The notes below the pieces were generated by a model, which had not been told where the DNA came from, did not search any database, and was given only the letters and a program-made list of their open reading frames with translations. Of a stretch of DNA of 64,000 nucleotides, positions 7,181-24,631 are shown piece by piece; the stretch's first letter is position 1; the number at the start of each line of letters is the position of its first letter. Origin of the DNA: a bacterium (GTDB lineage Bacteria; Zhuqueibacterota; QNDG01; JABMRT01); assembly GCA_011046415.1 (NCBI GenBank), contig DSAP01000090.1, forward strand, positions 4,590 to 68,589, in the 5' to 3' direction. Position numbers and translations under genes: made by a program.

Positions 7181-7573
7181 CTTATTCACATTGGCCTCCG
7201 TCCTCGATGTAATCGTCCAATGCAAGGGTTTCAGGAAAAATAACCGATCAAGATACCGAACTCCTGGATAAAAATCAATAAAAAATAAATTTTTATTTGA
7301 ATTTTTCGGTGCGGCGATTCACGCAGAAGAAGAGACGGGGGGACAGGATCGAACCGGAGACCCCGTACCGGATCGGCGGAGACTGGCAGAGTCGTCCGGA
7401 TTGTGAGGTACAAACGGCCGGATCCGTGCGGACCGTTTGAATGAGAAAACACCCTGTTTGCGTACCCGCCGGAGGGATGTTAAACCCCGCCATTCCGTAT
7501 TCAGGTCCTGAGAAACCAAGCAGGGCGGCCGGCCTTCTATCCATTCCGGTGATTTCCGGAAGACCGGTCGCGT

Positions 7574-8221: not shown

Positions 8222-8283
8222 GGCGATCCTCCTTTCTTGCGGGAATGGTTCTTTTATCGTCACCGCTCCGGGATTTCTCCGCC

Positions 8284-8511
8284 TCATCTCTGACGCAGGA
8301 GGAAGAAAATGATAAAGAGACAGATCAGCATGAGCAGGATGGACATCAGCGCCCAGAAACCCGGATAGATTCTAAAAATCAACCCGAACCGGCGGCGGTC
8401 ACGCCGTCGCGCCAGGACTTGTCGCCAGATTTCATGACGGAGATGCGCCATGTCGCGTTCCGGCGGCCGGCTCATTTTCAGGATTTGTTCGATGTCGTTC
8501 ATGGTTTTCAT
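8284..8511 (-). CDS. small single-pass anti-sigma-factor-like membrane protein
   Basis: 75 aa; charged N-terminus, one C-terminal TM helix; sits directly downstream of the ECF sigma gene. Confidence 0.4.
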   Translation of the reverse strand: MKTMNDIEQILKMSRPPERDMAHLRHEIWRQVLARRRDRRRFGLIFRIYPGFWALMSILLMLICLFIIFFLLRQR

Positions 8512-8517
8512 AGCTGT

Positions 8518-9101
8518 TTTTTCAGTTGTTCGAGACCTCGTCGGATCTGTGTTTTGATCGTATTCTCGGGAATATGGAGGATGACCGCGATCTCGCGGAT
8601 CGGCAATTCCTCGTAATAACGTAAGGTCAGCACATCCTGATAACGCGGTTTGATTTTGTGCAGTGCCCGGAGCACACGGGCTGATTTGAGCTAGATTTCC
8701 TTTTGGTCTTCCTCGGCGGCGATTCCGGAGTCGGTGGAACTGTCCCCCGGGAGGACGGCAATCCGGGGTTCTGTCAGTCGTACCAGCTTCCGGTTCCTGC
8801 GGAAATGCTGGTGGATCTCATTGGTGGCGATCCGGTAGAGCCAGGCCGAGAAGGGCAGGCCTTTCCATTCGAAGTGCTGGATCCCATCCAGGGCTTTCAG
8901 GAAGGTGGAAGCGGTTAGGTCTTTCGTGAGCGTCTCGTCGCCCGTGCGCCGGAGGATATAATTGGAAATGGTCCCGTAGTATTTGTCGAAGAGAAATCGA
9001 AAGGCGGCCGGATCGGATTTCGACGCGGCAATCCATTTTTTGTCATCTGTGAACTCCGTATTCACGGACGCACCGCTTTTCGGGGTCTGCTTTCTCTTCA
9101 C
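8518..9101 (-). pseudogene. ECF (sigma-70 family) sigma factor interrupted by an in-frame TAG at 8691-8693
   Basis: Region 2 (FRFLFDKYYGTISNYILRR...) is encoded at 8694-9101 and region 4 (LPIREIAVILHIPENTIKTQIRRGLEQL) at 8518-8690 in the same frame, separated only by a TAG. GTG start at 9101. Confidence 0.7.
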
Positions 9102-9277
9102 TTACAAAATACCGAATTGAACGAAAAGTTTCGTTTTTTTTGACAGGGATTGAATTCATCGGGTGGTACCGCGACGAAACGGAAAGACATTTTCGGCTTG
9201 AACCTTTCCCGGGGTTTGAGTATTTTGTGTCGGATCGAAAGAAGAGGATCGTCGGGAAAGGCGGATTGATCTTAGCA

Positions 9278-9450
9278 AACTACTGGCTTTGCCAGTGGTT
9301 CACGATCTTAAACGGGTCGGCACTAAACGTGCCTTCTTTTGCTCGCGGCCTTTGGCCGCAATCAAAAGCCACCGGCTTTGCCGGTGGTCGTTAATTCCGT
9401 GGGATCACGCAAAGCCTTCCGGCGAGGCCTCAGGCCGGAAAGGCTTTGCC
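9278..9450. repeat. array of REP-like palindromic elements (GC arms flanking TTT)
   Basis: AACTACTGGC-TTT-GCCAGTGGTT (9278-9300), GCGGCC-TTT-GGCCGC (9345-9359), GCCACCGGC-TTT-GCCGGTGGTC (9368-9389), and the larger palindrome GCAAAGCCTTCCGGC...GCCGGAAAGGCTTTGC (9409-9450), in a 330-bp noncoding gap. Confidence 0.5.
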
Positions 9451-9469
9451 GTTCCTGAAAACCGGATTG

Positions 9470-10468
9470 TTACGCTTTGTTGCTGAACGCCTCGTCGAAG
9501 ACGCCCGCGGGCAGCGGATAATTCAGGGTTTTCAGAAATTCACAGGCATCGGCGGCGCCGAATTCACGGTCCATGCCGGGGTCTTCCCATTCGACCGAAA
9601 GGGGGCCGTTGTACCCGATCCGGTTCAATACCCGGATGATCCCTTCGAAGTCCACGTCGCCGCGACCGAGCGAGCGGAAATCCCATCCGCGGCCGGCCCG
9701 GCCGAAATTGAGATGCGAGCCGAGTATGCCGGTGGTGCCGTCCAGCGTCACGGCGCAATCCTTCATGTGGCAGTGATAGATCCGTTCCTCGAATTCCTCG
9801 AGGAATTTCACCGGATCCATGCCCTGCCACTCAAGATGGCTCGGGTCGAAATTGAAGCCGAAGGCCTCCCGGTACGCGATGGCGTCGAGTACCTTGCGCG
9901 TCGTGACGAAATCATAGGCGATCTCGGTCGGATGCACCTCGAGCGCGAACCGGACGCCGCATTCGTCGAACACATCCAGGATCGGGTTGAAGAGTTCTGC
10001 GAAATATTGATACCCTCTTTCGACTTCGTCCCAGTCGTTGGGGGGGAAGGAGTACAGCATATGCCAGATGGACGAACCGGTGAAGCCGTTCACGACCGGG
10101 ACGCCCAGATTGCGGGCGGCCCGCGCCGCCGCCTTCATGGAATCGATCCCGAACCGGCGTTTCTTTTCCGCATCGCCCTTGCAATCGTCCGGGACGAAGC
10201 CGTCCGACCGGTTGTCGTCGTTGGGATCCAGAATCAGCTGTCCTGTGAGATGATTGCTGATAGCCCAGGTCTTGAGTCCGTATTTGGCCAGGAGTTTGTG
10301 TCTGGCGTCGCAGTACGCCTTGTCCTCCGCGGCCCTGAAAACATCCATGTGATCGCCCCAGCAGGCAAGCTCCAAACCGTCATATCCCCAGTCCCGGGCT
10401 TTTTTGCACAGGGTTTCGAGGGGCAGGTCGGCCCACTGTCCGGTGAAGAGTGTGATGGGTCTGGGCAT
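9470..10468 (-). CDS. sugar phosphate isomerase/epimerase (xylose-isomerase-like TIM barrel)
   Basis: 332 aa; metal-binding barrel motifs (ALEVHP, CHMKD, WEDPGMD) typical of the AP-endonuclease-2 / TIM-barrel isomerase family. Confidence 0.8.
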   Translation of the reverse strand: MPRPITLFTGQWADLPLETLCKKARDWGYDGLELACWGDHMDVFRAAEDKAYCDARHKLLAKYGLKTWAISNHLTGQLILDPNDDNRSDGFVPDDCKGDAEKKRRFGIDSMKAAARAARNLGVPVVNGFTGSSIWHMLYSFPPNDWDEVERGYQYFAELFNPILDVFDECGVRFALEVHPTEIAYDFVTTRKVLDAIAYREAFGFNFDPSHLEWQGMDPVKFLEEFEERIYHCHMKDCAVTLDGTTGILGSHLNFGRAGRGWDFRSLGRGDVDFEGIIRVLNRIGYNGPLSVEWEDPGMDREFGAADACEFLKTLNYPLPAGVFDEAFSNKA

Positions 10469-10915
10469 GACTCTCTCCTTTTTTTGGTGGCGGATTAAAT
10501 TTACAGATCGGGATCGGGAATGTCAAGGAATATGAAGCGCGGCGGCAACGGAGGATCCGTTTCGGACAGGGGTGTGCGGAGTCACACAACCGGATGTGAA
10601 TCAGAAAGGTAAGACGGGATGACAAGCCGGAATATCCGGGAGATCTTTTCATTGGTGAAGTTGAATTTTGTCTGATTCCGAAGAAGACAGCGGGTCGGGA
10701 TTTCTGTCCTGACCGAAAATAGTGGCTTCTGGTTGGATGAATGGAAAACCGGGGCGGAAACGGACTGCGATTCCTTGCCGGTTTATCATCAAGCGGAACC
10801 GGACGTGAATACTCCTGCCTTTTCCATAAGTAGGTTTAAAAACGGGATGCAACAAATCGCCGGGAAGTCCATATACTGAACAGGATGTCTCATGAATACG
10901 AGAGGAGGGGTCACT

Positions 10916-11551
10916 ATGAAAACCCGTCTCACATTTGCCTTTTTATTCCCGGCGATGGTCCTGTTCACCGGCTGCAACGTGCAGGTGAACCGGTCGGTCC
11001 ATCTCGGTGACGGGCGCACTGTCCGCGCCGATCAGGTTACGGTCAACGGGCAGATCACCGTTGGTTCGGATTGTGAGGTGCGCGGCAATCTGACAACGGT
11101 GAACGGAAACATTCGGGTCGGAAGAAACTCAAAGATCAGGTCGATTCGTACGGTCAACGGCACCGTTCGTCTCCAGGATGATGTGAAAATTTACGGAAAA
11201 CTCCAGTCCGTAAACGGTCCGGTGTCGTGCGACCCGGGGGTGAGAATCCGGGGTGACATCGCGACCGTGAACGGGAATATCGACTTGCGACAGACGATGG
11301 TCGGCAGAAATCTCGTCACCACTCACGGACGTATCACGCTGGCCGGAAAGTCTGAGGTGGACGGAAACATCCTGATAAAAAGAGATCAGGGAAGTCACAG
11401 GATCCGTCCCCTCTCCATCGAGATTACGGAGGGTTCCGTGGTCAGGGGGGATATCCGCGTCGCGGATCGTCGATCGGTTGTGACGGTGTCTCTTTCCCGC
11501 GGCGGGCAGGTCCAAGGCGTAATTCACAACGCCACGGTGGTGGAGGAGTAA
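10916..11551 (+). CDS. lipoprotein with six tandem 19-20-aa TVNGxI repeats (predicted beta-helix; bactofilin/DUF4097-like)
   Basis: Signal peptide MKTRLTFAFLFPAMVLFTGC (lipobox), then repeats TVNGQITVG / TVNGNIRVG / TVNGTVRLQ / SVNGPVSCD / TVNGNIDLR / THGRITLAG. Confidence 0.65.
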   Translation: MKTRLTFAFLFPAMVLFTGCNVQVNRSVHLGDGRTVRADQVTVNGQITVGSDCEVRGNLTTVNGNIRVGRNSKIRSIRTVNGTVRLQDDVKIYGKLQSVNGPVSCDPGVRIRGDIATVNGNIDLRQTMVGRNLVTTHGRITLAGKSEVDGNILIKRDQGSHRIRPLSIEITEGSVVRGDIRVADRRSVVTVSLSRGGQVQGVIHNATVVEE

Positions 11552-11678
11552 CCGTCCCCGTACCGGCTCAAGACGGCGGTGGTTGTACTCTATCTGGGGT
11601 GCGTATTTCCTCCCGAAAGACGCGCCCCCCTCGCATTTTTCTTCCTTTTCCCTCTGTAACCATCGGGTCTCGATCCGA

Positions 11679-13064
11679 TCATTCCGACTCGGTGACGAAC
11701 GAGAATGTCACCGGATCTTTCAGGGCCGATCCGTGCATGTCCCGGGCACCGGTTCCGAGGGTAATCGTGTATTTGGTGTTTCCCGCCAGGTCCTGGGACG
11801 GCCTGAAGGAGATCACATCTTTGGATGGATTGGTGTTGTTTTCCTGATAAGACCATCCCCGGAAGAACGATCCACGCACGGCCGGCTGAATCCCGAACGC
11901 GTTCTGTACCGCAGCCAGATTCATGTAGGTGTTGAACTGGATGCTGATAACCACATTTCGGGAAACGAAGATCTCCCCGTTCAGGGGACGGGTGTTCGTC
12001 ACTTCGAGCGGAGCGGTCTCGAAGGAGAACTCGAAAGGATCGCCGAGGGCGTCGCCGTCCAGGTCCGTGGCCGTGCCGTCGATCCGGATCGTGTACAGGG
12101 TTTCGCAACGGAGCGGTCCTCCCGTGAAAATCCTGAGCTGATTTCTCTCGGGCCAGAGGGGTGTGATGTCGGACGGCGGCGAGAGGGTCAGGGCGGACTC
12201 CGTCGATACCGCATCCATACGCCTGGGGAAGTTGACATAGATCGAGGCGTTCTGAAGCGGATTGACGTAGATCGCCCCGTGTTCGGGTTGGGTCAGGATC
12301 ACGTTCTGTGACGTCGCGGATTGCACCGTGCTGAAACGGAACATCAGGGGGAACGAGAGCGGGGAGCCCGCGGTATCCATCGCAGTCGTGGCCAGAATCA
12401 CGGTATAGGTGGTATCCACATAACCATCCTTCTGAGCCATCCGGTAGGTGAAGGAAGTGATGTTTTCATATGTCGAGATAACGGCTCCGGCACCGGAATC
12501 CCGGGCGTATAAACTCTCATCGTTCCAGTAGTACCTCGGTGTGGGGGTGTAGGCGAACGCGCCCCAGTAGAAAACGCCTTCGGAAGGCGGATCGGTCGAG
12601 AAAGCGGCCTCGACGCTCTGGCGGTTCATCGGCCGGACGAATTCCACCGAAATGGAAATCTGGGACCAGCGGCGGTCGAAAACGATCTCCGACCGGTCCG
12701 CCGGATAGACTTGTGAAATCAGGTCCGGAAAGTCGGAGAGGCGGATTTCCCCGACATAGGTCCGGGCGCCCCCGGTCACCTCGACATCCGCTCTCCGGTA
12801 TGTGCCGTAATTTCCTGCCTTTACAATGAGATCATAGTTGCCGGCGGGTACGTTCTCAAGCAGAAAAGTGCCATTATACGGGCTGATCTGCACGGAATCG
12901 ACCGGTTCCGCCTGGCCGATCACGACCCAGGCGCCGCTGTCGGCCTGCACCACTCTTCCGGTGATGGAACCGTCCGTTTCAGCGGTGATGATCTTTTCGA
13001 TGGTTTTGGTGCATCCCGAAAAGAGGATGAGCCCCATCGAACAATAGATTCGTATGTTTTGCAT
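11679..13064 (-). CDS. surface lipoprotein with an N-terminal carboxypeptidase-regulatory-like domain and several Ig-like (SbsA/BIG-type) domains
   Basis: Lipobox LFSGC; VPAGNYDLIVKAGNYG motif; repeated roughly 90-aa beta-sandwich-like units; 461 aa. Confidence 0.6.
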   Translation of the reverse strand: MQNIRIYCSMGLILFSGCTKTIEKIITAETDGSITGRVVQADSGAWVVIGQAEPVDSVQISPYNGTFLLENVPAGNYDLIVKAGNYGTYRRADVEVTGGARTYVGEIRLSDFPDLISQVYPADRSEIVFDRRWSQISISVEFVRPMNRQSVEAAFSTDPPSEGVFYWGAFAYTPTPRYYWNDESLYARDSGAGAVISTYENITSFTYRMAQKDGYVDTTYTVILATTAMDTAGSPLSFPLMFRFSTVQSATSQNVILTQPEHGAIYVNPLQNASIYVNFPRRMDAVSTESALTLSPPSDITPLWPERNQLRIFTGGPLRCETLYTIRIDGTATDLDGDALGDPFEFSFETAPLEVTNTRPLNGEIFVSRNVVISIQFNTYMNLAAVQNAFGIQPAVRGSFFRGWSYQENNTNPSKDVISFRPSQDLAGNTKYTITLGTGARDMHGSALKDPVTFSFVTESE

Positions 13065-13345
13065 GAGAGCCTCCCTGATTTATCTGCGGAAAGACTACAA
13101 GACATGTGCCAGATCCACCAGCCGGAGATTCGGCCCGGAGAGAAGATGTCCGCTTTAGAAAAAGAGACAAGTGTTCCTGAGTTTTTTGTGGATTCCCCGG
13201 AAATCTGAGGATGATGTCTGAATGCATATCATGATCCAGAAAATGATAAGCAGCAAATCCGGATTTGCCGGAGACCGGGATTTCCGACTCCGGTGAATCG
13301 AACAATTACGGAAAAACAAGCGTCTTCCTGCTCCGGTTTATGGCG

Positions 13346-14686
13346 TCATTCTTCCGGGAAAGAAGACAGAATGCCTCCGGTCAGACGGAGCAATTCGGTC
13401 TGCGATTCGATGAGCCGGTACACGGCCGTGAGCCGGCCGACCGCCGCATTCAGGTAAAGCATCTGGACGTCCCGGTAATTAAACGAGTTGATCGCGCCCG
13501 TTCTGAATTTCTCCCCGGAGATTTCGAGGTTCAGCGCCGCGGTCGCCTGCGCCTCGGCGGCCACATCGACGAGCTTCTTTCTTACCTCAAACAATTCCAG
13601 TTGCGCGGCGAGCCGGTTGGACAGACTGTGTATCATGGCATCGGTTTCGACCTGTCCGATTTCATGGTCCACCTTCGCGATTTGTACCGCCCGGTTTCTC
13701 GCTCCGCCGCTGAACAGGTTCCAGCTCAGGTTCAGGGTGCCGTATCCCTCGTAGGTCGTGAGGGGGGACGGCCGGATATCGATGCGGCTGCCTTCCAGTC
13801 CGGCGCGGAGGGAGAGGGACGGCCACCATTCGCTTCGGGCGAGGGCGACCTGTTTTTCGAGCAGGGTCTGGCGGAGGTACCGGTTCCTCAGCAGCCGGTT
13901 GTCGGCAAGCATCCTGTCCTTCAATATTCCATACTCATACGTATTCGCGGCGGCTTCGAACGGTTCCGTCAGCCGGTAAGCGCGGTCGTCCGTTTCGCCG
14001 ATCAGATAATTGAGATCACGCATGGCGTTGCGGGCGCGCGCGGTTTGTTCCAGGTATCTGGCCTCGTCCTCGAGCCAGGCATTTTTCGCCTGGAGCAGGT
14101 CGTATGTGACGAGGGCGCCCAGTTGACGCTGGGATTCCGCCCTCTCGTACCGGTTTCCGGAGAGGGTGCGCAGTGTGTCGAGTACGTCCGCCTGTTTTAA
14201 CTGGAGCAGTGCGTTGTAATAGGCCAGGATGACGGCCTGAACCGATTCTTCGATGAGCAGGGCCGTGTTCCCCGCGCTCAACCGCTCCAGCTGATCCAGC
14301 CTTGCCTTGCGGATCCGGACCGCGAATCCGTCGAACAGGATCCACTGGAGGGTCAGATTTGTCGAGGCCATATCCCGGACATCCCGGTCCCCGGTATCGA
14401 GATCCTGCCTGCGTGAAGCGGAAATCGAAAAATCCAGGGAGGGAAACGCTCCCGCCGTACCCCAGGTGTTTTGAATCGCCGCGATTCTTTTGTCGAGACG
14501 GCGGATCCGGATATCATAATTGTATTCGAGGGCGCGGCCGACGGCCTCCGGCAGGCCCAGGGAGTCCTGGGCAGAAAGGTGCGTAAAGCCGAGCATGATC
14601 CAGATCGCCGGAATAAGAAATCTACGGTTCATCATGAAGCCCTTCCCGGATCGCATGGTTTCGGATTCAATCTCACATTCTGTCAT
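13346..14686 (-). CDS. TolC-family outer-membrane efflux channel
   Basis: Signal peptide starting MMNRRFLIPAIWIMLGF (the true start may be Met18-19 at about 14635); two-repeat TolC architecture. The ATG at 14684-14686 overlaps the RND gene stop (ATGA). Confidence 0.8.
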   Translation of the reverse strand: MTECEIESETMRSGKGFMMNRRFLIPAIWIMLGFTHLSAQDSLGLPEAVGRALEYNYDIRIRRLDKRIAAIQNTWGTAGAFPSLDFSISASRRQDLDTGDRDVRDMASTNLTLQWILFDGFAVRIRKARLDQLERLSAGNTALLIEESVQAVILAYYNALLQLKQADVLDTLRTLSGNRYERAESQRQLGALVTYDLLQAKNAWLEDEARYLEQTARARNAMRDLNYLIGETDDRAYRLTEPFEAAANTYEYGILKDRMLADNRLLRNRYLRQTLLEKQVALARSEWWPSLSLRAGLEGSRIDIRPSPLTTYEGYGTLNLSWNLFSGGARNRAVQIAKVDHEIGQVETDAMIHSLSNRLAAQLELFEVRKKLVDVAAEAQATAALNLEISGEKFRTGAINSFNYRDVQMLYLNAAVGRLTAVYRLIESQTELLRLTGGILSSFPEE

Positions 14687-17600
14687 TCATCCTCCCGGTC
14701 CCGGTGCAATATCTCGAATTCGACCTCTTCGGGAGCCGGGCGGCGGCCGGTCCACAGATGGACGGCATTGACACGCAGGTCATTCAGGGCCTGGATGAGC
14801 GGGGGAAAGAAGATCAGGATGAATCCCGACCCGAACACGACGCCGTAGGCGAGGCTGATGGCCATGGGGATGAGGAACTGCGCCTGATGGCTCCTCTCCA
14901 GAATCAGAGGGAAAAGACCGATCGATGTGGTCAGCGTGGTCAGGAGAATCGGCCGCAGACGCCGGCTCCCCGCCTCGGTAATGGCGTCTCTCACTCTCAT
15001 GCCGGAGGCAACCAGGCTGTTGTATTTGGCCAGGAAGATGACGGCGTCGTTGATGATGACGCCCGAAAGCGCGATCATGCCCAGCACCGAGAGCAGGGAA
15101 ACGGGTTTCCCGTGAATCCAGTGCCCCAGAAATGCACCCACCAGGGACAACGGGATCATGGCCAGGATGATGACCGGTTGTTCGAGGGATTTGAAATGAA
15201 TCATCAGGATGAGCACGATGCAGGCGAATGCGATGCCGAAATACGTCTGGAGCTTGTCCACCGTGATCTGGCTTTCGCGCTGCTGGCCCTGAAAAACGAC
15301 ACGGATTCCGGGATATCTGGCCTTGATCTCAGGGATGATCTGTGTGTTGATCTGGTTCAGAATGTCCGGGACCGAGTCGTAGGGATCGACCAGGTCGGCC
15401 TCGATCCGCATTTCACGTTGCCCGTTGAACCGGCGGATTCCGACCGGGCCGCGCTGGATATCATAGTCCGCCAGTTCGATGAGGGGGAATGTCCCTTTGG
15501 GTGTCTTGATCCGCATTTGTTCGAGCTGGCCGATATGCATCCGGTCTTCGGGGGGGAAGCGCACCCAGATCCGGATTTCGTCCCGGCTTTGCTGGAGCCG
15601 CTGGACCTGCTCGCCGTAAAATCCCTGGCGCACCTGACTCACGATATCCGATTCATTCAATCCCAGCAGGTATGCCTTCGATTTGAGCCTGAGCCGGATC
15701 TCCTGTTTGCCCTGGGCGTTGTTGTCGATGATGTCTTTCAGCATCGGCATGTTGTTCAGGCCGGCCATCAGCATATCCCGGGCGGCTTCCAGCTCTTCGA
15801 GATTGCGGCTCAGGAGGCTGACGGAGACCGGCATGCCCCAGCGGCTCCTGCTGCCGACCGTGTATTTTTCCGCTTCGGGGACCGGGCCGATTTTGTTCCG
15901 CACCCGTTCCGCGATCTGCATGCCGGTCAGATCTATCCGGGTCAGATCGACGGGAAAGACGGTGAGCCGTCCGGCGTGCGTGCCGACCTCCTGTCTCGAG
16001 AACGCGTGTCCCACCTGGAGGCGGGTATCCCGGATGAGGTCTTCAGACCGGCCCATTTCCTGTTTCAGATCATCGTTGACCGTCCACACGGCCTCTTCGA
16101 ATCGGTGGAGGAAGCGGTACGTCTGTTCATCCCCGGATCCGGGGACGAAGGCGATGTTGATTTCGAAGCTGTCGAAATCCACCACGGGATAATAGGTGCT
16201 TCGGATGAATCCGCCTCCGAGAAGCCCGATCGTGATCATCATCATGGCGGGCGGAATGGCCAGCATGAGGTAGCGCCATCGGAGCGACCGCCGGATAAAG
16301 GCCGCATATCCTCTCCCGCTCAGCCAGGCCAGGCCGTCTTCGATATGGTGCTTCACCGATTTTTGGGGACGGGCCATTCTCTCCCGGTCGAGCACATGGT
16401 GCGAGGCCAGATGGGCCGGCAGGACGAAAAAGGCTTCAATCAGGCTTAAAATGAGGCAGATAATGACGATGAAGGCCATTTCCCAGAGTTGTTCCATGTT
16501 CGTGCCCGTCAGGAACAGCAGCGGCATGAAGGCAACGACCGTCGTGGTGATGCTGGTCAGCACCGCCGGCATGACTTCGAGGGTCCCCTCGATCGCCGCC
16601 CTGCGAGGACTGTATCCCTGCTGAAAATAGGCGAACACATTCTCGCCGATGACGATGCCGTCGTCGACCAGGATGCCGATGACCAGGATCATTCCGAACA
16701 GGGACATCATGTTGATCGTGATGCCGTAGAGGTTGGCGATCACGAACATGGACAGGAATGAGGCCGGGATTCCCCAGGCCACCCAGAAGCTGACCCGGAA
16801 GCTGAGGAAAAGGGTCAGTGAGATGATCACGAGGATGGAGCCGAGAATCCCGTTGTTGACCAGGATTCTCAACCGGCTGTTCAGGATTTCGAGAAAGCTG
16901 AAATTGACCCTGAGCCGGACCCCGGGATTCCTGGCGTTGAAATCTTCCGCATAGGCATTGATGTATTTGTCGATGGCTTCGAGGTCTTCTTCCGGCAGTT
17001 TGTCGACCAGGAAAGTCACCGAAGGCTTTCCGGCCCGGTAGGCGGGATAGAAACTCTCCGGCGCGGTCTTGCGCACGGTCCCCACATCCCGGATGCGCAG
17101 GAAACCGCCGCTGGGGGTACCCCTGAGCGGGATGTCCGCGATCACGTCCGGATCTGCGCTGCGGGAACGCAGCCGGATCAGGATTTCCTCGGAACGCGAC
17201 CGGATCTGGCCGCCCGAGATGTCCCGGTTGTTGTTCAGGATGGCCCGGGAGACCTCCGTGAGCGTCAGATTGTAGCGCAACAGGTTCGTCTCGGGAATCT
17301 CGACCGAAATCTCGGGTGTGGGGGCGCCGCCCAGGGAAACCTGGCTGATGATTCCGGAATTCAGGAAATCTTCCTCGATCTGATAGCCATATTCCTTGAG
17401 GGTGAACAGGTCGTCCGTCCCGGAAAGGGTCAGGAAAGCGGCCCGCGAGGTGGGACGCCTCTTGAACACAATCGGGCGTTCCGCGGCGGAGGGAAACGCG
17501 GAGATGCCGTCGACCGCATTCTTGACTTCCATCAGGATTTCATCGATGTCATACCGGCCCGTGGTCTCGATGAGCACCTGCGAAGCGTTTTCCGACGAGG

Positions 17601-17850
17601 TGCTCGTGATCTCCTTGATGCCCACGATACCGCGGACGGCTTCTTCGATCAGCGAGGTGACGCCTTCTTCCATTTCGACCGGCGAGGCGCCCGGATAAAA
17701 AACCGAGATGGATATAAAGCGGGATTTGATTTCCGGGAAGAAACTCTTCTTCAGGTTGTTCAGCGAAAGCCATCCTGCGATCAGGATGAAGGCGATGATC
17801 AGGTTGGCGTAAAACGGATATTTCACGAAGGTGGTGACCAGTTTTCGCAT
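14683..17850 (-). CDS. RND efflux permease (AcrB/CzcA family)
   Basis: 1055 aa; 12-TM RND topology with two large periplasmic loops; N-terminal MRKLVTTFVKYPFYANLIIAFILIAG typical of AcrB-family pumps. Confidence 0.9.
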   Translation of the reverse strand: MRKLVTTFVKYPFYANLIIAFILIAGWLSLNNLKKSFFPEIKSRFISISVFYPGASPVEMEEGVTSLIEEAVRGIVGIKEITSTSSENASQVLIETTGRYDIDEILMEVKNAVDGISAFPSAAERPIVFKRRPTSRAAFLTLSGTDDLFTLKEYGYQIEEDFLNSGIISQVSLGGAPTPEISVEIPETNLLRYNLTLTEVSRAILNNNRDISGGQIRSRSEEILIRLRSRSADPDVIADIPLRGTPSGGFLRIRDVGTVRKTAPESFYPAYRAGKPSVTFLVDKLPEEDLEAIDKYINAYAEDFNARNPGVRLRVNFSFLEILNSRLRILVNNGILGSILVIISLTLFLSFRVSFWVAWGIPASFLSMFVIANLYGITINMMSLFGMILVIGILVDDGIVIGENVFAYFQQGYSPRRAAIEGTLEVMPAVLTSITTTVVAFMPLLFLTGTNMEQLWEMAFIVIICLILSLIEAFFVLPAHLASHHVLDRERMARPQKSVKHHIEDGLAWLSGRGYAAFIRRSLRWRYLMLAIPPAMMMITIGLLGGGFIRSTYYPVVDFDSFEINIAFVPGSGDEQTYRFLHRFEEAVWTVNDDLKQEMGRSEDLIRDTRLQVGHAFSRQEVGTHAGRLTVFPVDLTRIDLTGMQIAERVRNKIGPVPEAEKYTVGSRSRWGMPVSVSLLSRNLEELEAARDMLMAGLNNMPMLKDIIDNNAQGKQEIRLRLKSKAYLLGLNESDIVSQVRQGFYGEQVQRLQQSRDEIRIWVRFPPEDRMHIGQLEQMRIKTPKGTFPLIELADYDIQRGPVGIRRFNGQREMRIEADLVDPYDSVPDILNQINTQIIPEIKARYPGIRVVFQGQQRESQITVDKLQTYFGIAFACIVLILMIHFKSLEQPVIILAMIPLSLVGAFLGHWIHGKPVSLLSVLGMIALSGVIINDAVIFLAKYNSLVASGMRVRDAITEAGSRRLRPILLTTLTTSIGLFPLILERSHQAQFLIPMAISLAYGVVFGSGFILIFFPPLIQALNDLRVNAVHLWTGRRPAPEEVEFEILHRDREDE

Positions 17851-17878
17851 GGGTTTTTTCCCGATATTTCGCCTGTGT

Positions 17879-19042
17879 TTATCCGTCGGATTGTTTCAGG
17901 CCGTGCGCCGGGGAGTCTACGCCCCTGATTTTGACCGGAGAATTTTCCGACACATTGATCAGGGGCTGCGTCACCACATACATTTCCGGTTCAGGGCCTT
18001 TGATCAGTGCGGTATTTTCGGTGAGTCTCACGACATCCACCGTGCGGATTTGCAGGAGTCCGTCCAAGACGAGGAAGACCTGATTGTAATTGAAGAGGGC
18101 GTTCCTCGGTATTTGCATGACATCCTTCACGGGCGTGCCTTCGAACCGGGCGAGGAGGAATTCCCCCGAAAAAAGCGGATTCTGTCCTGTCAGGGGAACG
18201 CGGACGAAAACGCTTCTCGACTGGGTCGCGTCCTCCACGAAATGCGATACGCGCGTCACCGGGCCCCGCCATTCTATCTCCCGCGCTTCGGACACGAGAA
18301 CGACCGGATCCCCGATTCGGATCCATCGGGCGTTCGCCGTCTCGATCGGCACCTCGACTTCCAGGGCATCGGTGGCGATGATGCGCGCGATCCGGCTTCC
18401 CGTATTGGCATAGGCGCCCGTTTCGAGAAACACGTCGGTGTAAACACCCTGAAAGGGCGCGCGGATGGTATGGCGGGAGAGTCTCAGCTCGGATTGCTGG
18501 ACGGCGAAATAATCCGAAAGAAAGTTTCTGCTGGCCAGGAAAATCCGCAAAGGCTCCCGGTCGACTTCCGGAAGGCCCGGCAGGGGTGCGTCCAGACGGA
18601 TTGCGCCGAAAAATTCCAGAAATGTCCCGTAGTATTCCGGATAATCCACCTGGATGTCCGGTAACAGGACGGCCACCCGGTTGAGGAACTGGCTTTTCTG
18701 GGCCTTCAGCGCGAGTTCCGCCTCGTCCCGGTAAATCGTCAACAGGGCCTGGCCTTTCTGGAATGTCTGGCCTTTCTTGAGCGGCTGATCGCCCGGCTCG
18801 ATACGCCCCGAGGCCTCGGCGATCACCTCCACTTCCGCGGTGGAGTGGACCCGTCCCTTGCCGGTGATCGGGGACAGAATTTCCGAATACCGAATCGGTT
18901 CGGCCATGACCCACCGTTCACTCACCGGGGGAGGCCGGGTGGGCAGTTCGGGTTTTAAGGTGAACAGATACCGCATCAGAATAAAACTGAAAGAGAGGAT
19001 GCCGAGAAATCCCGCGATGATGATCCATTTGCGCTTATCCAT
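17879..19042 (-). CDS. RND efflux membrane-fusion protein (HlyD/AcrA family)
   Basis: N-terminal TM anchor, coiled-coil/lipoyl/beta-barrel segments; 387 aa; immediately upstream of the RND pump. Confidence 0.8.
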   Translation of the reverse strand: MDKRKWIIIAGFLGILSFSFILMRYLFTLKPELPTRPPPVSERWVMAEPIRYSEILSPITGKGRVHSTAEVEVIAEASGRIEPGDQPLKKGQTFQKGQALLTIYRDEAELALKAQKSQFLNRVAVLLPDIQVDYPEYYGTFLEFFGAIRLDAPLPGLPEVDREPLRIFLASRNFLSDYFAVQQSELRLSRHTIRAPFQGVYTDVFLETGAYANTGSRIARIIATDALEVEVPIETANARWIRIGDPVVLVSEAREIEWRGPVTRVSHFVEDATQSRSVFVRVPLTGQNPLFSGEFLLARFEGTPVKDVMQIPRNALFNYNQVFLVLDGLLQIRTVDVVRLTENTALIKGPEPEMYVVTQPLINVSENSPVKIRGVDSPAHGLKQSDG

Positions 19043-19223
19043 GTATCATTTCCCTGTCGGCTGGGTTTGGACTGTCCATGGCCGGATGCGACTGCGTGAT
19101 CCGCCCTGACGGATATCTCCGCCGTTTGCGTTCATTATAAGTGAAAAAACGGAAATTTCACAATGAATTATCCATGTTTGTTCCCGTCTCATACAATTTT
19201 TTACACTTTGACGACAAAGGGAT

Positions 19224-20126
19224 TTATCCCGCGATGGATTTTTGATGCTGGATCCGGGAGAACCTGCGTGCCGCGATGAATCCGTCAATCGCATAGATGC
19301 AGAGGGCCGTCCAGATGAACAGGAATCCGATGAGCCTGTTTTTTGAAAAAGGCTCATGATAGAGGAATACCCCGATCAGGAACTGGAGCGTGGGCGCAAC
19401 ATACTGGAGGAGTCCGATCAGCGAATAGGGGATCCGTCGCGCGGCGGATCCAAAGAGGAGGAGCGGGAGCGCGGTGGCCGGTCCCGATAAGGCGAGCAGG
19501 AGCGTCTGTCCCGCGGGACCGTTTCCGAAGGCACCGGCCTGAATGACCTGAAAATGGATCAGGAAACCGAGAGCCGGAAGGAACAGGATGGCGGTTTCGA
19601 GCGAGAGTCCCTCGATCGAATTCAGGGGCGCCGTCTTCCGGATCAATCCGTAGAAGGCGAACGAAAAGGCGAGCACGAGCGCGATCCAGGGCAGACGGCC
19701 GAAACGCAGCGTCAGATAGAGTACACCGGCGGCGGCCAGGATGACCGCGACACGCTGCCAGGGGCGCAGGGTTTCCCTGAGCACGAAGACACCGAGGAGC
19801 ACGGCCACGATCGGGTTGATGAAATAGCCGAGGCTTGATTCGATGATATGCCCGCTGTTGACGGCCCAGATATAGGTGCCCCAGTTCAGGGCGAGGAGCA
19901 GGGATGTCCCCAGGAAGATCAGGAAAATGACCGGCTGTTTATGGATCCGGGCGATCCATCCCCAATCTTTCATAAACAGGAGGATGATCAGGATGAAAAC
20001 GAGAGACCAGACCATGCGGTGGCAGAGGATCTGGAAGGATGAAACCGCGGCCAGGGCTTTCCAGTAGACGGGAAGCAGCCCCCAGATTCCATATGCCAAA
20101 AACCCGTAAACAATGCCGCGCTGCAT
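19224..20126 (-). CDS. rarD: EamA/RarD-family (drug/metabolite transporter) permease
   Basis: 10-TM protein with two EamA repeats; LAYGIWGLLPVYWK start typical of RarD. Confidence 0.75.
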   Translation of the reverse strand: MQRGIVYGFLAYGIWGLLPVYWKALAAVSSFQILCHRMVWSLVFILIILLFMKDWGWIARIHKQPVIFLIFLGTSLLLALNWGTYIWAVNSGHIIESSLGYFINPIVAVLLGVFVLRETLRPWQRVAVILAAAGVLYLTLRFGRLPWIALVLAFSFAFYGLIRKTAPLNSIEGLSLETAILFLPALGFLIHFQVIQAGAFGNGPAGQTLLLALSGPATALPLLLFGSAARRIPYSLIGLLQYVAPTLQFLIGVFLYHEPFSKNRLIGFLFIWTALCIYAIDGFIAARRFSRIQHQKSIAG

Positions 20127-20244
20127 GTCATCTTTCCGCATTGAAAAAACGAATCAAGTTATAAAAGAAAAGGCGCCCCTGCAAGTAAAAAAACCGGGTG
20201 ATCGGCTGCCAGTCCTGCAGGGATGAAATCAAACAGGCAGAAAA

Positions 20245-20288
20245 ATGTCAATACGGCATAAATAATCATACATTATGTCAATATGGCA
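20245..20288. promoter_or_regulatory. tandem direct repeats TGTCAATA(C/T)GGCA spaced 30 bp apart; candidate enhancer for the hsp20 sigma-54 promoter
   Basis: ATGTCAATACGGCA at 20245-20258 and ATGTCAATATGGCA at 20275-20288, 50-95 bp upstream of the -24 element. Confidence 0.35.
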
Positions 20289-20336
20289 AGCAATGAAAAG
20301 AACGTATAAACTCCATATATTTAGTTATATACATCG

Positions 20337-20352
20337 TGGCACACAGGTTGCA
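20337..20352 (+). promoter_or_regulatory. sigma-54 (-24/-12) promoter of the hsp20 operon
   Basis: TGGCAC-ACAGG-TTGCA: perfect GG-N10-GC spacing and near-consensus flanks, about 50 bp upstream of the first Hsp20 start. Confidence 0.6.
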
Positions 20353-20400
20353 TCTGCCTGATTTGGATCCACAAACCACCATTCAAAGGAGGTGTGAGCG

Positions 20401-20832
20401 ATGTACGTCAATCGATTTCTTAACCGAACGGAAACCTGGCGCTGGCTGGACGATCTGCAGCGGGAAATGAACCGTTTATTCGACGGGTACGGATTCACGC
20501 CGCAACGGGCTTTTCCAGCCGTGAACATCCGGGCCAATGCGGAAGAAGCCCTGGTTTCCGCAGAATTGCCAGGGGTGGAACTGAAGGATCTCCGCCTTTC
20601 CGTGATGAACAACACGCTGACGCTCGAAGGCGTGCGCAGGGGCGAACCCGTGAAAGAAGGAGAATCCGTCCATCGTCAGGAGAGGAAAATCGGGGATTTC
20701 AAACGATTTCTGGAACTGCCGTTTTCAGTGAATCCGGATCGAATCACCGCCGGTCTCAAGAACGGCATCCTGACGATCCGGCTGCCCCGCAGGGAAGAAG
20801 ACAAACCCAAATCCATCCAGATTCAGGGATAA
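20401..20832 (+). CDS. Hsp20/alpha-crystallin small heat-shock protein
   Basis: Alpha-crystallin domain (ALVSAELPGVELKDLRLSV...NGILTIRLP). Confidence 0.9.
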   Translation: MYVNRFLNRTETWRWLDDLQREMNRLFDGYGFTPQRAFPAVNIRANAEEALVSAELPGVELKDLRLSVMNNTLTLEGVRRGEPVKEGESVHRQERKIGDFKRFLELPFSVNPDRITAGLKNGILTIRLPRREEDKPKSIQIQG

Positions 20833-20839
20833 TCAGGAG

Positions 20840-21250
20840 GTGATCGCCATGGCTGAAAAGGCTGTTCAAAAAATGGAAAGCCAGGAAGTCGAACGGGTCG
20901 AACGAACCCGTTCAGGAAGGACTTTCCTGCCGCCGACGGACATCATCGAAACCGAAAGCGAGATCATTCTCCTTGCGGATATGCCGGGAGTCGATGAGAA
21001 GACCGTCGATATCATACTCGAGAATAAATTGCTGACGATTCAGGGGAATGTCGAAACCCGGGACGATAACAATCTCCAGACGGTGTATGCCGAATTCGAA
21101 TCCGGAGATTATTACCGCGCATTTACGCTGAGTGACGACATCGACCGGGAGAGGATCCAGGCCAAGCTGAAGAACGGCGTGCTGAAACTCGTTCTTCCCA
21201 AGGCGGAGACGGCGAAATCACGCAAGATTGCGGTCCACACCGGAGAATAA
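20840..21250 (+). CDS. Hsp20/alpha-crystallin small heat-shock protein
   Basis: Alpha-crystallin domain (IILLADMPGVDEKTVDI...NGVLKLVLPK). Confidence 0.85.
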   Translation: MIAMAEKAVQKMESQEVERVERTRSGRTFLPPTDIIETESEIILLADMPGVDEKTVDIILENKLLTIQGNVETRDDNNLQTVYAEFESGDYYRAFTLSDDIDRERIQAKLKNGVLKLVLPKAETAKSRKIAVHTGE

Positions 21251-21272
21251 AAGCATGAAAGGAGGGATTGCG

Positions 21273-21767
21273 ATGAAGATCAAAGAGCTGATTCCTGCGC
21301 AGTGGGGACGGAGTGAGGTGCCCGTCAGGCGGACGATGGACTCCAGTCCCCTCCTCGATTTGCAACGTGGAATGAATCGCATGTTCGACCAGTTTTTCGA
21401 CGATTTCACGGGGTCCCGGTTTCCGGAATCAGCCCGGAATGTCTATCCGCAGATCGACATCCGCGAAACCGATCAGGCCGTCGAGGTGTCGGCCGAATTG
21501 CCCGGACTCGAACGCGAAGATGTGGATATCTCGATCGCGGCAGACGTGCTGACAATCCGGGGCGAGAAACGGCAGGAGAAAGAGGAGAAAAACGGCGGAG
21601 TCCGTTATGTCGAACGCACCTATGGTGCATTCCGGCGCGAAATTCCGATCCGGGCCGAGATCGAAGTCGAGAAGGTGAACGCGAAAATGAAAAACGGCGT
21701 TCTGACCGTAACGCTGCCCAAGAAACCGGAAAGCCGGCGTATGGCCAGACGCATCGAAGTGCAATGA
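21273..21767 (+). CDS. Hsp20/alpha-crystallin small heat-shock protein
   Basis: AAAGGAGGG ribosome-binding site then ATG at 21273; VEVSAELPGLEREDVDI...NGVLTVTLPKK. Confidence 0.85.
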   Translation: MKIKELIPAQWGRSEVPVRRTMDSSPLLDLQRGMNRMFDQFFDDFTGSRFPESARNVYPQIDIRETDQAVEVSAELPGLEREDVDISIAADVLTIRGEKRQEKEEKNGGVRYVERTYGAFRREIPIRAEIEVEKVNAKMKNGVLTVTLPKKPESRRMARRIEVQ

Positions 21768-21774
21768 AACGGTC

Positions 21775-21817
21775 GCAGCCGGTGTACGGTCCGTACACCG
21801 GCTGCGTTTTTGCTTTT
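21775..21817. terminator. strong rho-independent terminator between the convergent hsp20 operon and GH3 gene
   Basis: 13-bp GC-rich stem GCAGCCGGTGTAC / GTACACCGGCTGC, 5-nt loop, followed by GTTTTTGCTTTT; an A-run on the other side makes it usable from both directions. Confidence 0.75.
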
Positions 21818-21826: not shown

Positions 21827-24463
21827 TTATCTGTACAGGATCCGATCCCCGAGGACTTCAAATCTCCCGGTGAGACTGCCCGTGGTCTCCGCATCGGCAC
21901 TGCCGGAAAAGCCGGGTTGTTTGCCCCCGACGGCAATTTCGAAGAAACCGGGTTCGAGGATCTGATTGGCGGAATCATCCCAGAATGCGAGCTGTCGGGG
22001 TGTCAGCGTGAAGGCAACTTCCTTTTTTTGTCCGGGTGCGAGATGGATCCGCCGGAATCCCTGCAGGGAGCGGATGGGAACGGGAAATGACGCCTCGACA
22101 TCCGAGACATAGAGCTGTACGACTTCGTCGCCCGCCATGCCGCCCGCATTCTCCACCGTCACCGAGACACAGACATCTTCACCCGCCGTGACCGTATCGG
22201 GAATCTGCAACTCCGAATACACGAAACGGGTATAGCTGAGTCCGTGTCCGAAAGGATACAGGGGGTCTCCCGTGAAATAACGGTAAGTCCGTTCTTCCAT
22301 GGCATAATCCTCGAAAGGCGGAAGCTGATCCAGCGATTTGTAGACCGTGACCGGAAGGCGTCCGGCCGGGTTGCAGTCGCCGAAGAGCACATCCGCGATG
22401 GCGGTGCCTCCTTCCTGGCCCGGATACCAGACCTGGAGGATCGCTGGCAGATTCCGGTCGGCCCAGTTCACGGTCACGGCACTGCCGCTCATCAGGACGA
22501 GCACCACGGATTTCCCCGTCATTTTCAGGGCCTTTAGCAATTCCACCTGGATGTCCGGCAGGTCGATGCGGGTCCGGTCTCCGCCGGTGAATCCTTCGAT
22601 CCGGACGGGCATCTCCTCGCCTTCGAGCATTGCGCCGATACCGCCCGCGAAAACAATCAGATCCGAATTCTTCGCCGCCTCGATCGCGTCCCGGAAAGGA
22701 TCCCCCCCGATTTCAGACCATTCGAACCGGATCCATGCGGCTCCCTGATTCTGATAATACTCGACCGTGACGGGGAGGGCTTCCTTCGCCTTGAGCGAGA
22801 CCGTGGCGGTCCGGATCTCGATGTCGTGATCGGACCAGTTGTCGATGAGCGTATCCCCGTTCACGATGAGCCGGTAACCGTCGTCTCCCATCAGGGAGAA
22901 TCGGTAATTCCCGCCCTTGGGGGCGATGAGTTCGCCCTGCCATCTCACGGAGAAATTGGCATGGCCGAGTCCGGGAACGGCGCTGCGCCACCAGTTGCTG
23001 TCGATTTCCCGGTCCACGCGCACGTGGAGGGGTTCTCCCTCAAGCGCCTGATTCATGTAGTATTCCGCCCTGAGGCCGGCCTGGCCGTTCGTCCTGAGTA
23101 CACCGGCGGGCACCAGTTCGGCCGGCGGGTTTTTATCCACATAATTGCATCCGCGTGCATACAAGACCCGGGTGTTCTTCCCGACTTTATTTTGTATTCC
23201 CTCGAGCACGGTGACCGATTTGGAAGGCGTGCCGTTGTAATTCCCGAGCAGGACGAACCGGTTATCCGCGTTCGGACCGATCACCGCGATGGTCTTGATA
23301 TCCCGTTTCAACGGAAGCAGCCCGTCGTTCTTGAGCAACACGAGCGATTCCCGGGCGGCCCGGACCGAGAGGGCCCGGTGCGCTTCACAGTCGTTTTTTT
23401 CAAAAGGTATCCGGGCATAGGCCACCCGTTCGGGCGGGTCGAACATACCCAGCCTGATACGCGCCGTAAAGAGCCTGCGGAGGGCGACGTCGAGTTCCGC
23501 CTCGGTGATGAAACCGCGCCGGACGGCCTGTTTCAGGTCGCGGTATGAATTGCCGCATTCCAGGTCGGTGCCGGATTTCACGGAGAGGGCCGAGGCCTCG
23601 GCCGCGTCGCCGACGATCCGGTGGTGCCGATAGATGTCATCGATCGCCCCGCAATCCGAAACGATGTACCCCTCGAATCCCCAGTCATTCCGCAGGATGT
23701 CCCTGAGCAGCCTCGGGCCGGCGCAGCAGGCCTCCCCGAGATAGCGGTTGTAGGCGCACATGACAGACCAGGCGCCGGCCTCCTCGACGGTCGCCCTGAA
23801 TGCGGGGAGGTAGGTGTCGTACAGGTCGCGCAGGTCGGTGACGGCGTCGAAGTGGTGCCGGTCGGGTTCCGGGCCGCTGTGTACGGCGTAATGTTTCGGG
23901 GTGGAGACGACCTTGAGGTAATGCGGATCGTCTCCCTGAAGGCCTTTGACGAACGCCACGCCCATGCGTCCGGTCAGGTAGGGGTCTTCGCCGTAGGTTT
24001 CCTGCCCCCGGCCCCAGCGCGGATCCCGGAAGATGTTGATGTTGGGGCTCCACATGGTCAGGCCCTTGTACCGCCCGAAATCGCCCTGCCGGACGAATTC
24101 GTGATGTTTCGCGCGGGCTTCGGTCGAAGTCACGTCGGCCACCTCGAACATCAGGTCCGTATTCCAGGTCGCGGCGAGGCCGATAGCCTGGGGAAAGACC
24201 GTGGCGATTCCCGCGCGGGCCACGCCGTGCAGGCATTCGTTCCACCAGTTGTATTCCGGAATGCCGAGCCGGGGGATGGCGCGGGCGACATCCATCATCT
24301 GGGAGATTTTTTCCTCCAGCGTCATGCGGGAGATCAGGTCGTCCACCCGTTGTGAGACCGGCAGATCGGGATTCAGATAGGCCGGGCCCTCCTCTGCGAT
24401 GGAGAGTTGCATACCGGTCAGCGCGAGAAAGACGATTAAGAGGAAGACAGGTTTTCGTTTCAT
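21827..24463 (-). CDS. glycoside hydrolase family 3 beta-glucosidase/xylosidase with PA14-like insertion
   Basis: Signal peptide MKRKPVFLLIVFLALTG; GH3 N-domain motifs (RDPRWGRGQETYGEDP, KHYAVHSGPE), catalytic GFEGYIVSDCGAI, C-terminal fibronectin-like domain. Confidence 0.85.
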   Translation of the reverse strand: MKRKPVFLLIVFLALTGMQLSIAEEGPAYLNPDLPVSQRVDDLISRMTLEEKISQMMDVARAIPRLGIPEYNWWNECLHGVARAGIATVFPQAIGLAATWNTDLMFEVADVTSTEARAKHHEFVRQGDFGRYKGLTMWSPNINIFRDPRWGRGQETYGEDPYLTGRMGVAFVKGLQGDDPHYLKVVSTPKHYAVHSGPEPDRHHFDAVTDLRDLYDTYLPAFRATVEEAGAWSVMCAYNRYLGEACCAGPRLLRDILRNDWGFEGYIVSDCGAIDDIYRHHRIVGDAAEASALSVKSGTDLECGNSYRDLKQAVRRGFITEAELDVALRRLFTARIRLGMFDPPERVAYARIPFEKNDCEAHRALSVRAARESLVLLKNDGLLPLKRDIKTIAVIGPNADNRFVLLGNYNGTPSKSVTVLEGIQNKVGKNTRVLYARGCNYVDKNPPAELVPAGVLRTNGQAGLRAEYYMNQALEGEPLHVRVDREIDSNWWRSAVPGLGHANFSVRWQGELIAPKGGNYRFSLMGDDGYRLIVNGDTLIDNWSDHDIEIRTATVSLKAKEALPVTVEYYQNQGAAWIRFEWSEIGGDPFRDAIEAAKNSDLIVFAGGIGAMLEGEEMPVRIEGFTGGDRTRIDLPDIQVELLKALKMTGKSVVLVLMSGSAVTVNWADRNLPAILQVWYPGQEGGTAIADVLFGDCNPAGRLPVTVYKSLDQLPPFEDYAMEERTYRYFTGDPLYPFGHGLSYTRFVYSELQIPDTVTAGEDVCVSVTVENAGGMAGDEVVQLYVSDVEASFPVPIRSLQGFRRIHLAPGQKKEVAFTLTPRQLAFWDDSANQILEPGFFEIAVGGKQPGFSGSADAETTGSLTGRFEVLGDRILYR

Positions 24464-24631
24464 GGTATGGCTCCTATTGTGTTGTCTTCTATTTCTGAAT
24501 TGGGTTGATGGACTAAGTGGATGATATGGGCGTGGTGCATCGATTTCCCTCCACATTGGCGATCCTTTTCACCCGGGAAGAAATATAGATCGCAATACAT
24601 GGCATTGATTATCCCCGACGAACTGAATAGT

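Follow-up and report, generated by a model that had tools for sequence, protein, structure and literature searches.

A three-gene small heat shock protein operon behind a sigma-54-type promoter with paired candidate enhancer boxes

Layout of the operon and its control region

The stretch of DNA analyzed here, 64,000 nt of contig DSAP01000090.1 (assembly GCA_011046415.1; hereafter the window), carries three tandem genes for small heat shock proteins (sHSPs), preceded by a predicted sigma-54 promoter with two upstream boxes and closed by an intrinsic terminator. All three proteins pass the Pfam gathering cutoff of PF00011 (HSP20), 20.8 bits, by a wide margin in a profile search. Each also carries at its C terminus the I/V-x-I/V oligomerization motif, a defining trait of the Hsp20/alpha-crystallin family, in the forms IQI, IAV, and IEV. 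The initial annotation had described the genes as nearly contiguous, and they are: the gaps measure 16 and 22 nt, and a separate Shine-Dalgarno sequence precedes each downstream gene. The operon, its control elements, and its two neighbors are as follows.

20246-20258, plus strand: distal candidate enhancer box TGTCAATACGGCA, a degenerate TGTCA-N3-TGACA palindrome centered at about -111 from the predicted start
20276-20288, plus strand: proximal candidate enhancer box TGTCAATATGGCA, centered at about -81; the sole exact TGNCA-N3-TGNCA in the window
20289-20336, no strand: AT-rich spacer from enhancer to promoter, the proposed DNA looping region
20337-20352, plus strand: predicted sigma-54 promoter TGGCACacaggTTGCA / TGGCACACAGGTTGCA, TGGCAC-acagg-TTGCA, with GG at 20338-20339 and GC at 20350-20351; predicted start at about 20363
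20387-20394, plus strand: Shine-Dalgarno sequence of sHSP gene 1, AGGAGGTG
20401-20832, plus strand: sHSP gene 1 (type 1), 143 amino acids (aa), PF00011 at 68.2 bits, C-terminal I-Q-I
20849-21250, plus strand: sHSP gene 2 (type 2), 133 aa, PF00011 at 66.8 bits, C-terminal I-A-V; short N-terminal arm without the EMNRLF motif
21273-21767, plus strand: sHSP gene 3 (type 3), 164 aa, PF00011 at 80.9 bits, C-terminal I-E-V
21774-21816, plus strand: intrinsic terminator, a 15-bp stem (11 G-C pairs) with a 3-nt loop at 21774-21806, then the T tract TTTTTGCTTTT
19224-20141, minus strand: EamA-family transporter gene, the divergent neighbor 5′ of the operon
21827-24556, minus strand: GH3 glycosidase gene, the convergent neighbor 3′ of the operon

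The promoter lies in a 259-bp intergenic region 5′ of sHSP gene 1. It had been noted as a near-consensus -24/-12 element, and it matches TGGCAC-N5-TTGCW without a mismatch. TGGCACACAGGTTGCA is the only such site in the 64 kb, where shuffled sequences predict 0.04; with one mismatch allowed, the window holds seven sites against 1.28 expected. The GG and GC of the element are 10 bp apart, the spacing of the sigma-54 promoter class, and the element stands in the correct orientation 48 nt 5′ of the first ATG. Upstream of it are the two 13-bp boxes, of the form TGTCAATAYGGCA, whose starts are 30 bp apart, or about three helical turns. From the end of the proximal box to the promoter is 48 bp, and from the start of the distal box, 91 bp. 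Two repeat copies 30 bp apart and 50 to 95 bp upstream had been proposed, and both were found, with coordinates 1 bp lower than implied. The tandem copies are thus real, although, to judge from orthologous operons, TGTCA-N3-TGACA, a degenerate palindrome of 5-N3-5 form, describes them better than a direct 13-mer repeat. The boxes, centered near -81 and -111, fall where the sigma-54 class has its upstream activator sites, which are often paired or palindromic and lie some 70 to 150 bp from the start. The generalized box TGTCANNNTGRCA, with at most one mismatch, has no other intergenic occurrence in the window. The region from 20246 to 20336 has a GC content of 28.6%, against 54.8% for the whole window.

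At the other end of the operon, the terminator hairpin between the converging sHSP and GH3 genes folds with -30.9 kcal/mol (z = -5.96). It had been called a strong bidirectional terminator. The strength is borne out, the two-way action only in part: the hairpin sits between converging genes but has its T tract on the plus strand only. The minus-strand side of the hairpin has three T's only, and no terminator was called on that strand.

Some further features touch on this region. No IHF consensus was seen by eye in the spacer of the hsp20 operon. A gene of the HU/IHF family (Bac_DNA_binding), at about 61236-61553 of the window (9243-9560 of L145) between relA/spoT and ruvX, could supply DNA bending at sigma-54 promoters. 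A public gene call places a 36-aa open reading frame (ORF) at 20159-20269 on the minus strand, overlapping the distal box; it is probably spurious. Elsewhere in the window, the -24/-12-like site TGGAACaaggtTTGCT (44114-44129) is intergenic and correctly oriented between two hybrid histidine kinase genes. Another, TGGCACatgtcTTGTA (13111-13096, minus strand), is intergenic as well and lies 31 nt upstream of a Big_5/CarboxypepD_reg surface protein gene (11679-13064).

Conservation in orthologous operons and metagenome loci

Searches with sHSP gene 1 found orthologous operons in unclassified metagenome-assembled genomes (MAGs) and metagenome contigs, which we refer to by locus labels. The sHSP 1 protein is 70% identical to its counterpart in L147, 61% to that in L148/L149, 50% to that in L150, and 48 to 54% to those in L003, L004, and L019. 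Gene order 1-2-3 is conserved, every paralogue being orthologous to its own counterpart, and L147 also keeps the EamA neighbor. Within the window, the three paralogues are 26 to 34% identical among themselves, and type 2 is missing the N-terminal EMNRLF motif. That paralogues this divergent have been kept in a fixed order suggests nonredundant roles, perhaps as hetero-oligomers.

We aligned six upstream regions from genomes of 43 to 55% GC whose proteins are 48 to 70% identical. Only the two boxes, TGGCA (-24), TTGCAT (-12), the Shine-Dalgarno sequence AAGGAGGTGT, and the ATG stand out as invariant islands. The boxes keep both position and sequence in five orthologous operons. TGGCAY-N5-TTGCA is kept 5′ of the orthologous operons in L003, L004, L019, L147, and L148; in L005 (Verrucomicrobia) the promoter reads TGGCAT-N5-TTGCT. 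The boxes of the orthologues read TGTCAAAATGACA, TGTCAGAATGACA, or TGTCAAAATGGCA, and box-to-box spacing is 30 to 31 bp in the window, L003, L004, L019, and L147. By their box-to-promoter distance, the orthologues form two groups (48 to 50 and 58 to 59) that differ by 10 to 11 bp, about one helical turn; in the alignment, an 11-bp indel in the spacer sets them apart. Conservation of boxes and promoter together with a helical-turn indel is the pattern that would be expected of a real enhancer/sigma-54 promoter pair.

The same alignment bears on a more conventional explanation, in which a sigma-70-family or sigma-32-like promoter drives the operon, the repeats are the operator of an ordinary repressor or activator, and the -24/-12 match is fortuitous. 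There is a weak sigma-70-like site at 20293-20321 (ATGAAA-17-TATATT, 9/12) and a sigma-32-like match at 20292 (AATGAAA-N12-CTCCAT, 10/13). Both overlap the spacer and are not conserved in the orthologues, whereas the -24/-12 element is invariant. The sigma-32-like match also has a spacer of 12, short of the 13 to 15 of the Escherichia coli consensus. An exact sigma-54 consensus, for its part, is expected only 0.04 times in a window of this size. The controlling inverted repeat of chaperone expression (CIRCE; TTAGCACTC-N9-GAGTGCTAA), another conventional operator, does not occur in the window at up to three mismatches or in 20101-20420 at up to four. We regard this explanation as very improbable. 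A search for a Bacteroidota sigma-A motif at the operon gave nothing convincing. Nor did an RNA thermometer emerge in the 5′ untranslated region: there was no Rfam match at E ≤ 1 except a terminator-like fragment, and the fold (-9.1 kcal/mol, z = +0.68) is not thermometer-like.

We then scanned public metagenome contigs for TGTCANNNTGRCA-N45-70-TGGCAY-N5-TTGCW, which returned at least 120 loci (L024-L143). The target gene was taken as the longest ORF starting at most 300 nt downstream of the promoter and was assigned by Pfam for 107 of the 120 loci listed; the figures that follow are for these listed matches. HSP20 was the target at 22 loci, HSP70 at 9, and Cpn60 at 3. With truncated genes included, Hsp20, DnaK, or GroEL comes first in 35 of the 120, for which P is about 1e-40 at a generous 1% background. 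The host GC content of the chaperone-linked loci ranges from 27 to 69%, and one DnaK match is annotated as Candidatus Brocadiia (Planctomycetota) and another as Bacteroidaceae. In the chaperone set only, the flanks of the box, which lie outside the search pattern, are biased as well: C stands at -1 in 52% versus 34%, and G at +13 in 64% versus 22%. The chaperone-linked box consensus is CTGTCA-N3-TGRCAG. The gap between box and promoter is bimodal, 45 to 56 and 60 to 70 nt, in chaperone and nonchaperone sets alike. Gaps of 57 to 59 nt have no sites and a gap of 60 has one, where about 18 sites would be expected at 57 to 60 nt if the distribution were uniform. This bimodality suggests selection for the face of the helix and, with it, that most matches are real modules.

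Taken as a whole, the evidence makes it highly probable that the three paralogous sHSP genes form a tricistronic operon transcribed only by sigma-54 RNA polymerase by way of a two-site enhancer. Enhancer-dependent rather than sigma-32-type control had been put forward in the initial annotation, and the phylogenetic footprint and the metagenome-wide association strongly support it. What the sequences show is the elements, how well they are conserved, and which chaperone genes they accompany; from this we infer how expression would proceed. At the -24/-12 element (20337-20352), sigma-54 holoenzyme would wait in a closed complex. A AAA+ enhancer-binding protein (EBP) encoded elsewhere in the genome would bind, as dimers, the two degenerate palindromes about 81 and 111 bp upstream, assemble into a higher oligomer, and reach the polymerase by looping the AT-rich spacer. 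ATP hydrolysis by the EBP would then open the promoter. Transcription would run from about 20363 through all three genes, giving a tricistronic mRNA of about 1.45 kb that ends at the hairpin at 21774-21806. Judged from the genes with which the module keeps company, the inducing signal is most likely proteotoxic stress.

Several observations weigh against this picture of a sigma-54-dependent chaperone operon. The rpoN gene is absent from the window and from the 10 kb of additional right flank of the source contig that we searched. In the window boxes, the C...G flanks usual for chaperone-linked loci are missing. A gap of 48, as in the window, is uncommon (3 of 116 listed loci), and the 58 to 59 of L003, L004, and L019 fall within the 57-to-59 range that is empty among the listed metagenome matches. 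When the AAA+ domain was compared by phmmer with all ORFs of the 120 listed loci, no EBP gene was found beside a chaperone-linked one. The box class is not chaperone specific either, for it also occurs at sigma-54 promoters with other EBP subfamilies. Finally, L152, L154, and L155, whose homologues are 49 to 51% identical, have no sigma-54 promoter upstream. As to the first point, absence of rpoN from the genome is unlikely, because the window encodes an EBP and has -24/-12 sites at four intergenic positions where a promoter would be expected. As to the gaps, they are off-peak in the window (48) and in L003, L004, and L019 (58 to 59), and the two-site arrays keep a 10- to 11-bp register of their own.

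The orthologous operons of Leptospira provide a natural contrast. At each of the 14 loci with the type 1 and type 2 genes (L006-L018 and L022), a CIRCE-like inverted repeat, or two of them spaced by about 32 bp, is present some 85 to 120 bp 5′ of the sHSP start, and none of the 14 has a -24/-12 element. These HrcA-CIRCE operons share with the window the type 1 and 2 pair (43 to 47% identical) in the same gene order. They differ in having two genes, CIRCE-like repeats, and no -24/-12 element, whereas the window has no CIRCE. Since the Leptospira loci and L152, L154, and L155 are without a sigma-54 promoter, the sigma-54 wiring looks lineage specific, as if regulation had been replaced at an orthologous operon. 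In L152, a MAG of 60% GC, a 14-kb stretch (6142-19881) holds clpB, a dnaJ-like gene, two hsp20 genes, and groES-groEL. A perfect CIRCE is present there at groESL only, with no sigma-54 element, so this chaperone cluster appears to be under different control.

Candidate activators

The initial annotation had suggested that an NtrC-family activator 29 kb away might govern the sHSP operon. The features at that site are these.

49355-50728, strand not given: NtrC-type EBP, a REC-AAA+-HTH_8 response regulator; the only EBP gene in the window
50970-50984, no strand: perfect 15-bp palindrome CTGATTCTGAATCAG, its 13-bp core 66 bp (the full 15-mer 65 bp) upstream of the 51050 promoter
51050-51065, strand not given: sigma-54-like promoter TGGCATggatgTTGCT, directly after the EBP gene, with no TGTCA box

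If this response regulator were the activator, the sigma-54 promoter would work as set out above and a histidine kinase phosphorelay would control the sHSP operon. It is the sole protein in the window with a sigma-54 interaction domain, and its REC-AAA+-HTH_8 architecture goes with adjoining kinase genes. There is precedent for an NtrC-type heat shock regulator in HsfA/HsfB of Myxococcus xanthus, which a passage of one paper places under "Heat shock," citing Ueki and Inouye (PMC3892784). As that passage presents it, HsfB/HsfA-lonD resembles the control proposed for the window in that a heat shock gene is under an NtrC-type sigma-54 EBP; the phylum and the target differ (PMC3892784). In L150, the orthologous operon has another REC-AAA+-HTH EBP gene 7.6 kb away, and a PAS-EBP found beside TGTCA boxes in L045 has a helix-turn-helix (HTH) like that of the 49355 protein.

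Its genomic setting argues the other way. The gene is 29 kb from the sHSP operon, and some 25 unrelated genes separate the two. The next gene downstream of it has a sigma-54-like promoter of its own, with CTGATTCTGAATCAG at a distance in the class of real enhancers and without a TGTCA box; this palindrome has the 5-N3-5 architecture of the heat shock box with different half-sites. The 49355 protein and the L150 EBP share only 42% identity, as would be expected of paralogues, and their HTHs differ. It scores below every NCBIfam equivalog cutoff, and the other orthologous operons have no EBP within the flanks examined. No further EBP gene was found in the additional 10 kb of right flank. We therefore consider it unlikely that the 49355 protein governs the sHSP genes, and the suggestion loses its footing on the different palindrome and missing TGTCA box at the adjacent promoter. 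The simplest reading of the arrangement is that this EBP serves its neighboring operon. The genes that follow the 51050 promoter (51124-53689) encode a response regulator, a REC-PAS-kinase, and a PorV/PorQ-family protein (type IX secretion) and may constitute an EBP-controlled secretion or signaling operon. Orthology of this response regulator operon to the response regulators downstream of boxes in L102 and L142 was considered and rejected, as the matches are weak and generic.

The EBP of L150 is encoded at 1037-4881 on the minus strand together with an 820-aa PDZ-GAF histidine kinase. Its recognition helix, YLNRLIKE, is closer to that of NorR (NLHRLAKR) than to that of NtrC. One may speculate that this EBP is the activator that binds the box. 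We rejected its proximity to the operon in L150/L151 as evidence. By a rough estimate of 10 EBP genes per 4-Mb genome, an EBP gene would be found no more than 10 kb away from about 5% of loci, and the proximity is therefore compatible with chance; moreover, the L150 operon has no upstream box. Recognition helices were also rejected as a guide to box binding, since EBPs adjacent to boxes show both NorR-like and NtrC-like helices and the comparison is uninformative.

The resemblance to NorR raises a different alternative, in which the boxes are sites of a NorR-like or other redox- or nitrosative-stress EBP and the operon answers nitric oxide (NO), sulfide, or oxidants rather than heat or unfolded protein. 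In E. coli, the norR-norV region has TGTCAATTTGACT, TGTCATATCGACC, and AGTCATTTTGACT upstream of a sigma-54 promoter, all with the GTCA-N3-TGAC core of the box consensus. These three enhancer sites are proposed to serve as a scaffold on which NorR assembles into a hexamer (PMC2941729). The window, too, has more than one such palindrome upstream of a sigma-54-type promoter, and its boxes fit the GT-N7-AC pattern of NorR, although only the TGTCA-N3 half is shared, the second half being TGGCA or CGGCA and not TGAC. Box-bearing loci with EBP genes of their own lend this alternative some weight. Five of the listed metagenome loci have such genes, all of them nonchaperone (L102, L040, L045, L106, and L029). 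In L040 and L106, an exact box accompanies a divergent NorR-like EBP, and the downstream genes are flavorubredoxin- or flavohemoglobin-like, as judged from N-terminal sequences only. L045 has several overlapping boxes at 6120-6250 beside its PAS-EBP and two Pyr_redox_2 genes, and the box in L029 is beside an EBP adjoining a DsrE gene.

The targets and the surroundings speak against it. The NorR sites are three, about 21 to 24 bp apart, and serve NO detoxification genes with norR divergent and adjacent; the window has two sites 30 bp apart, chaperone targets, and no adjacent activator gene. Neither the targets of the NorR regulon (norVW, hmp, and hcp) nor an adjacent GAF-AAA+-HTH norR gene is at the locus, where the neighbors are EamA and GH3, and no GAF-EBP was found in the window. 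Among the matches listed, the largest class is Hsp20/DnaK/GroEL, none with an adjacent NorR-like gene, and the chaperone-linked boxes have their distinctive C...G flanks. A redox or nitrosative signal for the sHSP operon is thus, in our judgment, quite unlikely. Because the box class appears with several EBP subfamilies, the motif alone cannot name the activator.

Known systems and a possible regulon

The PorV/PorQ-family protein of the window scores 115 bits against a cutoff of 90, which indicates type IX secretion and an organism of the Bacteroidota-related Fibrobacteres-Chlorobi-Bacteroidetes (FCB) group. The operon therefore places a -24/-12 promoter directly 5′ of chaperone genes in an FCB-related organism, the arrangement of the sigma-54 proteostasis regulon. 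Mapping of start sites in Flavobacterium psychrophilum assigned sigma-54 (SM4) promoters to groESL, dnaK, grpE-dnaJ, htpG, clpB, and lon; the authors noted three candidate EBPs and identified none of them as the activator (PMC9723704). In a matrix-based survey from 2025, the sigma-54 regulons predicted for Bacteroidota and Planctomycetota were enriched for a chaperone cluster that includes IbpA/COG0071 (PMC12316311). These systems share with the window a -24/-12 promoter directly 5′ of chaperone genes, a Bacteroidota-related setting, and an activator that has not been named. The Bacteroidaceae and Brocadiia dnaK loci among our listed matches carry the box of the window type. The published lists (PMC9723704 and PMC12316311) comprise groESL, dnaK, grpE-dnaJ, htpG, clpB, and lon with no enhancer motif, whereas the window has a three-gene sHSP operon and an upstream box. 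In Chlorobaculum tepidum, the HSP20 gene CT0644 has an RpoN motif at its primary transcription start (bioRxiv 10.1101/172254). This, too, is an Hsp20-family gene behind a sigma-54 promoter in a bacterium of the FCB group, but only one gene is involved, and neither an enhancer nor an activator is described for it (bioRxiv 10.1101/172254).

Sigma-54-driven chaperone genes are thus already documented, and the operon in the window is an expected instance whose stand-alone value is moderate. In E. coli, an sHSP gene with a sigma-54 promoter is reportedly known as well: Kuczynska-Wisnik et al. (2001) are said to have found the internal sigma-54 promoter of ibpB to be secondary, and there, unlike in the window, sigma-32 at ibpA dominates. 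In searchable full text, from which subscription journals are mostly excluded, we came across neither an enhancer motif nor the name of an activator for sigma-54 chaperone promoters, so an earlier description is possible.

Textbook heat shock control is that by sigma-32, HrcA-CIRCE, HspR, and CtsR. For the Bacteroidota-related and Planctomycetota radiations, the searchable literature reports only the sigma-54 promoter half of a heat shock switch. The sHSP operon and the metagenome survey supply a concrete candidate for the enhancer sequence and a simple two-site substrate for tests, and Leptospira offers the orthologous operon under CIRCE for comparison. Since the module of box and promoter also precedes hsp20, dnaK, and groEL in many uncultured lineages, the sHSP operon is most likely a member of a sigma-54-dependent regulon of protein quality control that responds to heat or proteotoxic stress. 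A wider proposal, which we hold only tentatively and would not yet favor, is that the (C)TGTCA-N3-TGACA(G) box marks a single cross-phylum regulon. An EBP, rather than sigma-32, HrcA, HspR, or CtsR, would then be the master activator of hsp20, dnaK, and groESL in Bacteroidota-related bacteria, Planctomycetota, and neighboring uncultured groups. If so, the clean two-site enhancer of this operon would be a compact handle for finding the activator, and one could ask by what means a AAA+ activator detects unfolded protein, titration of a chaperone, as in PspA/PspF, being one example.

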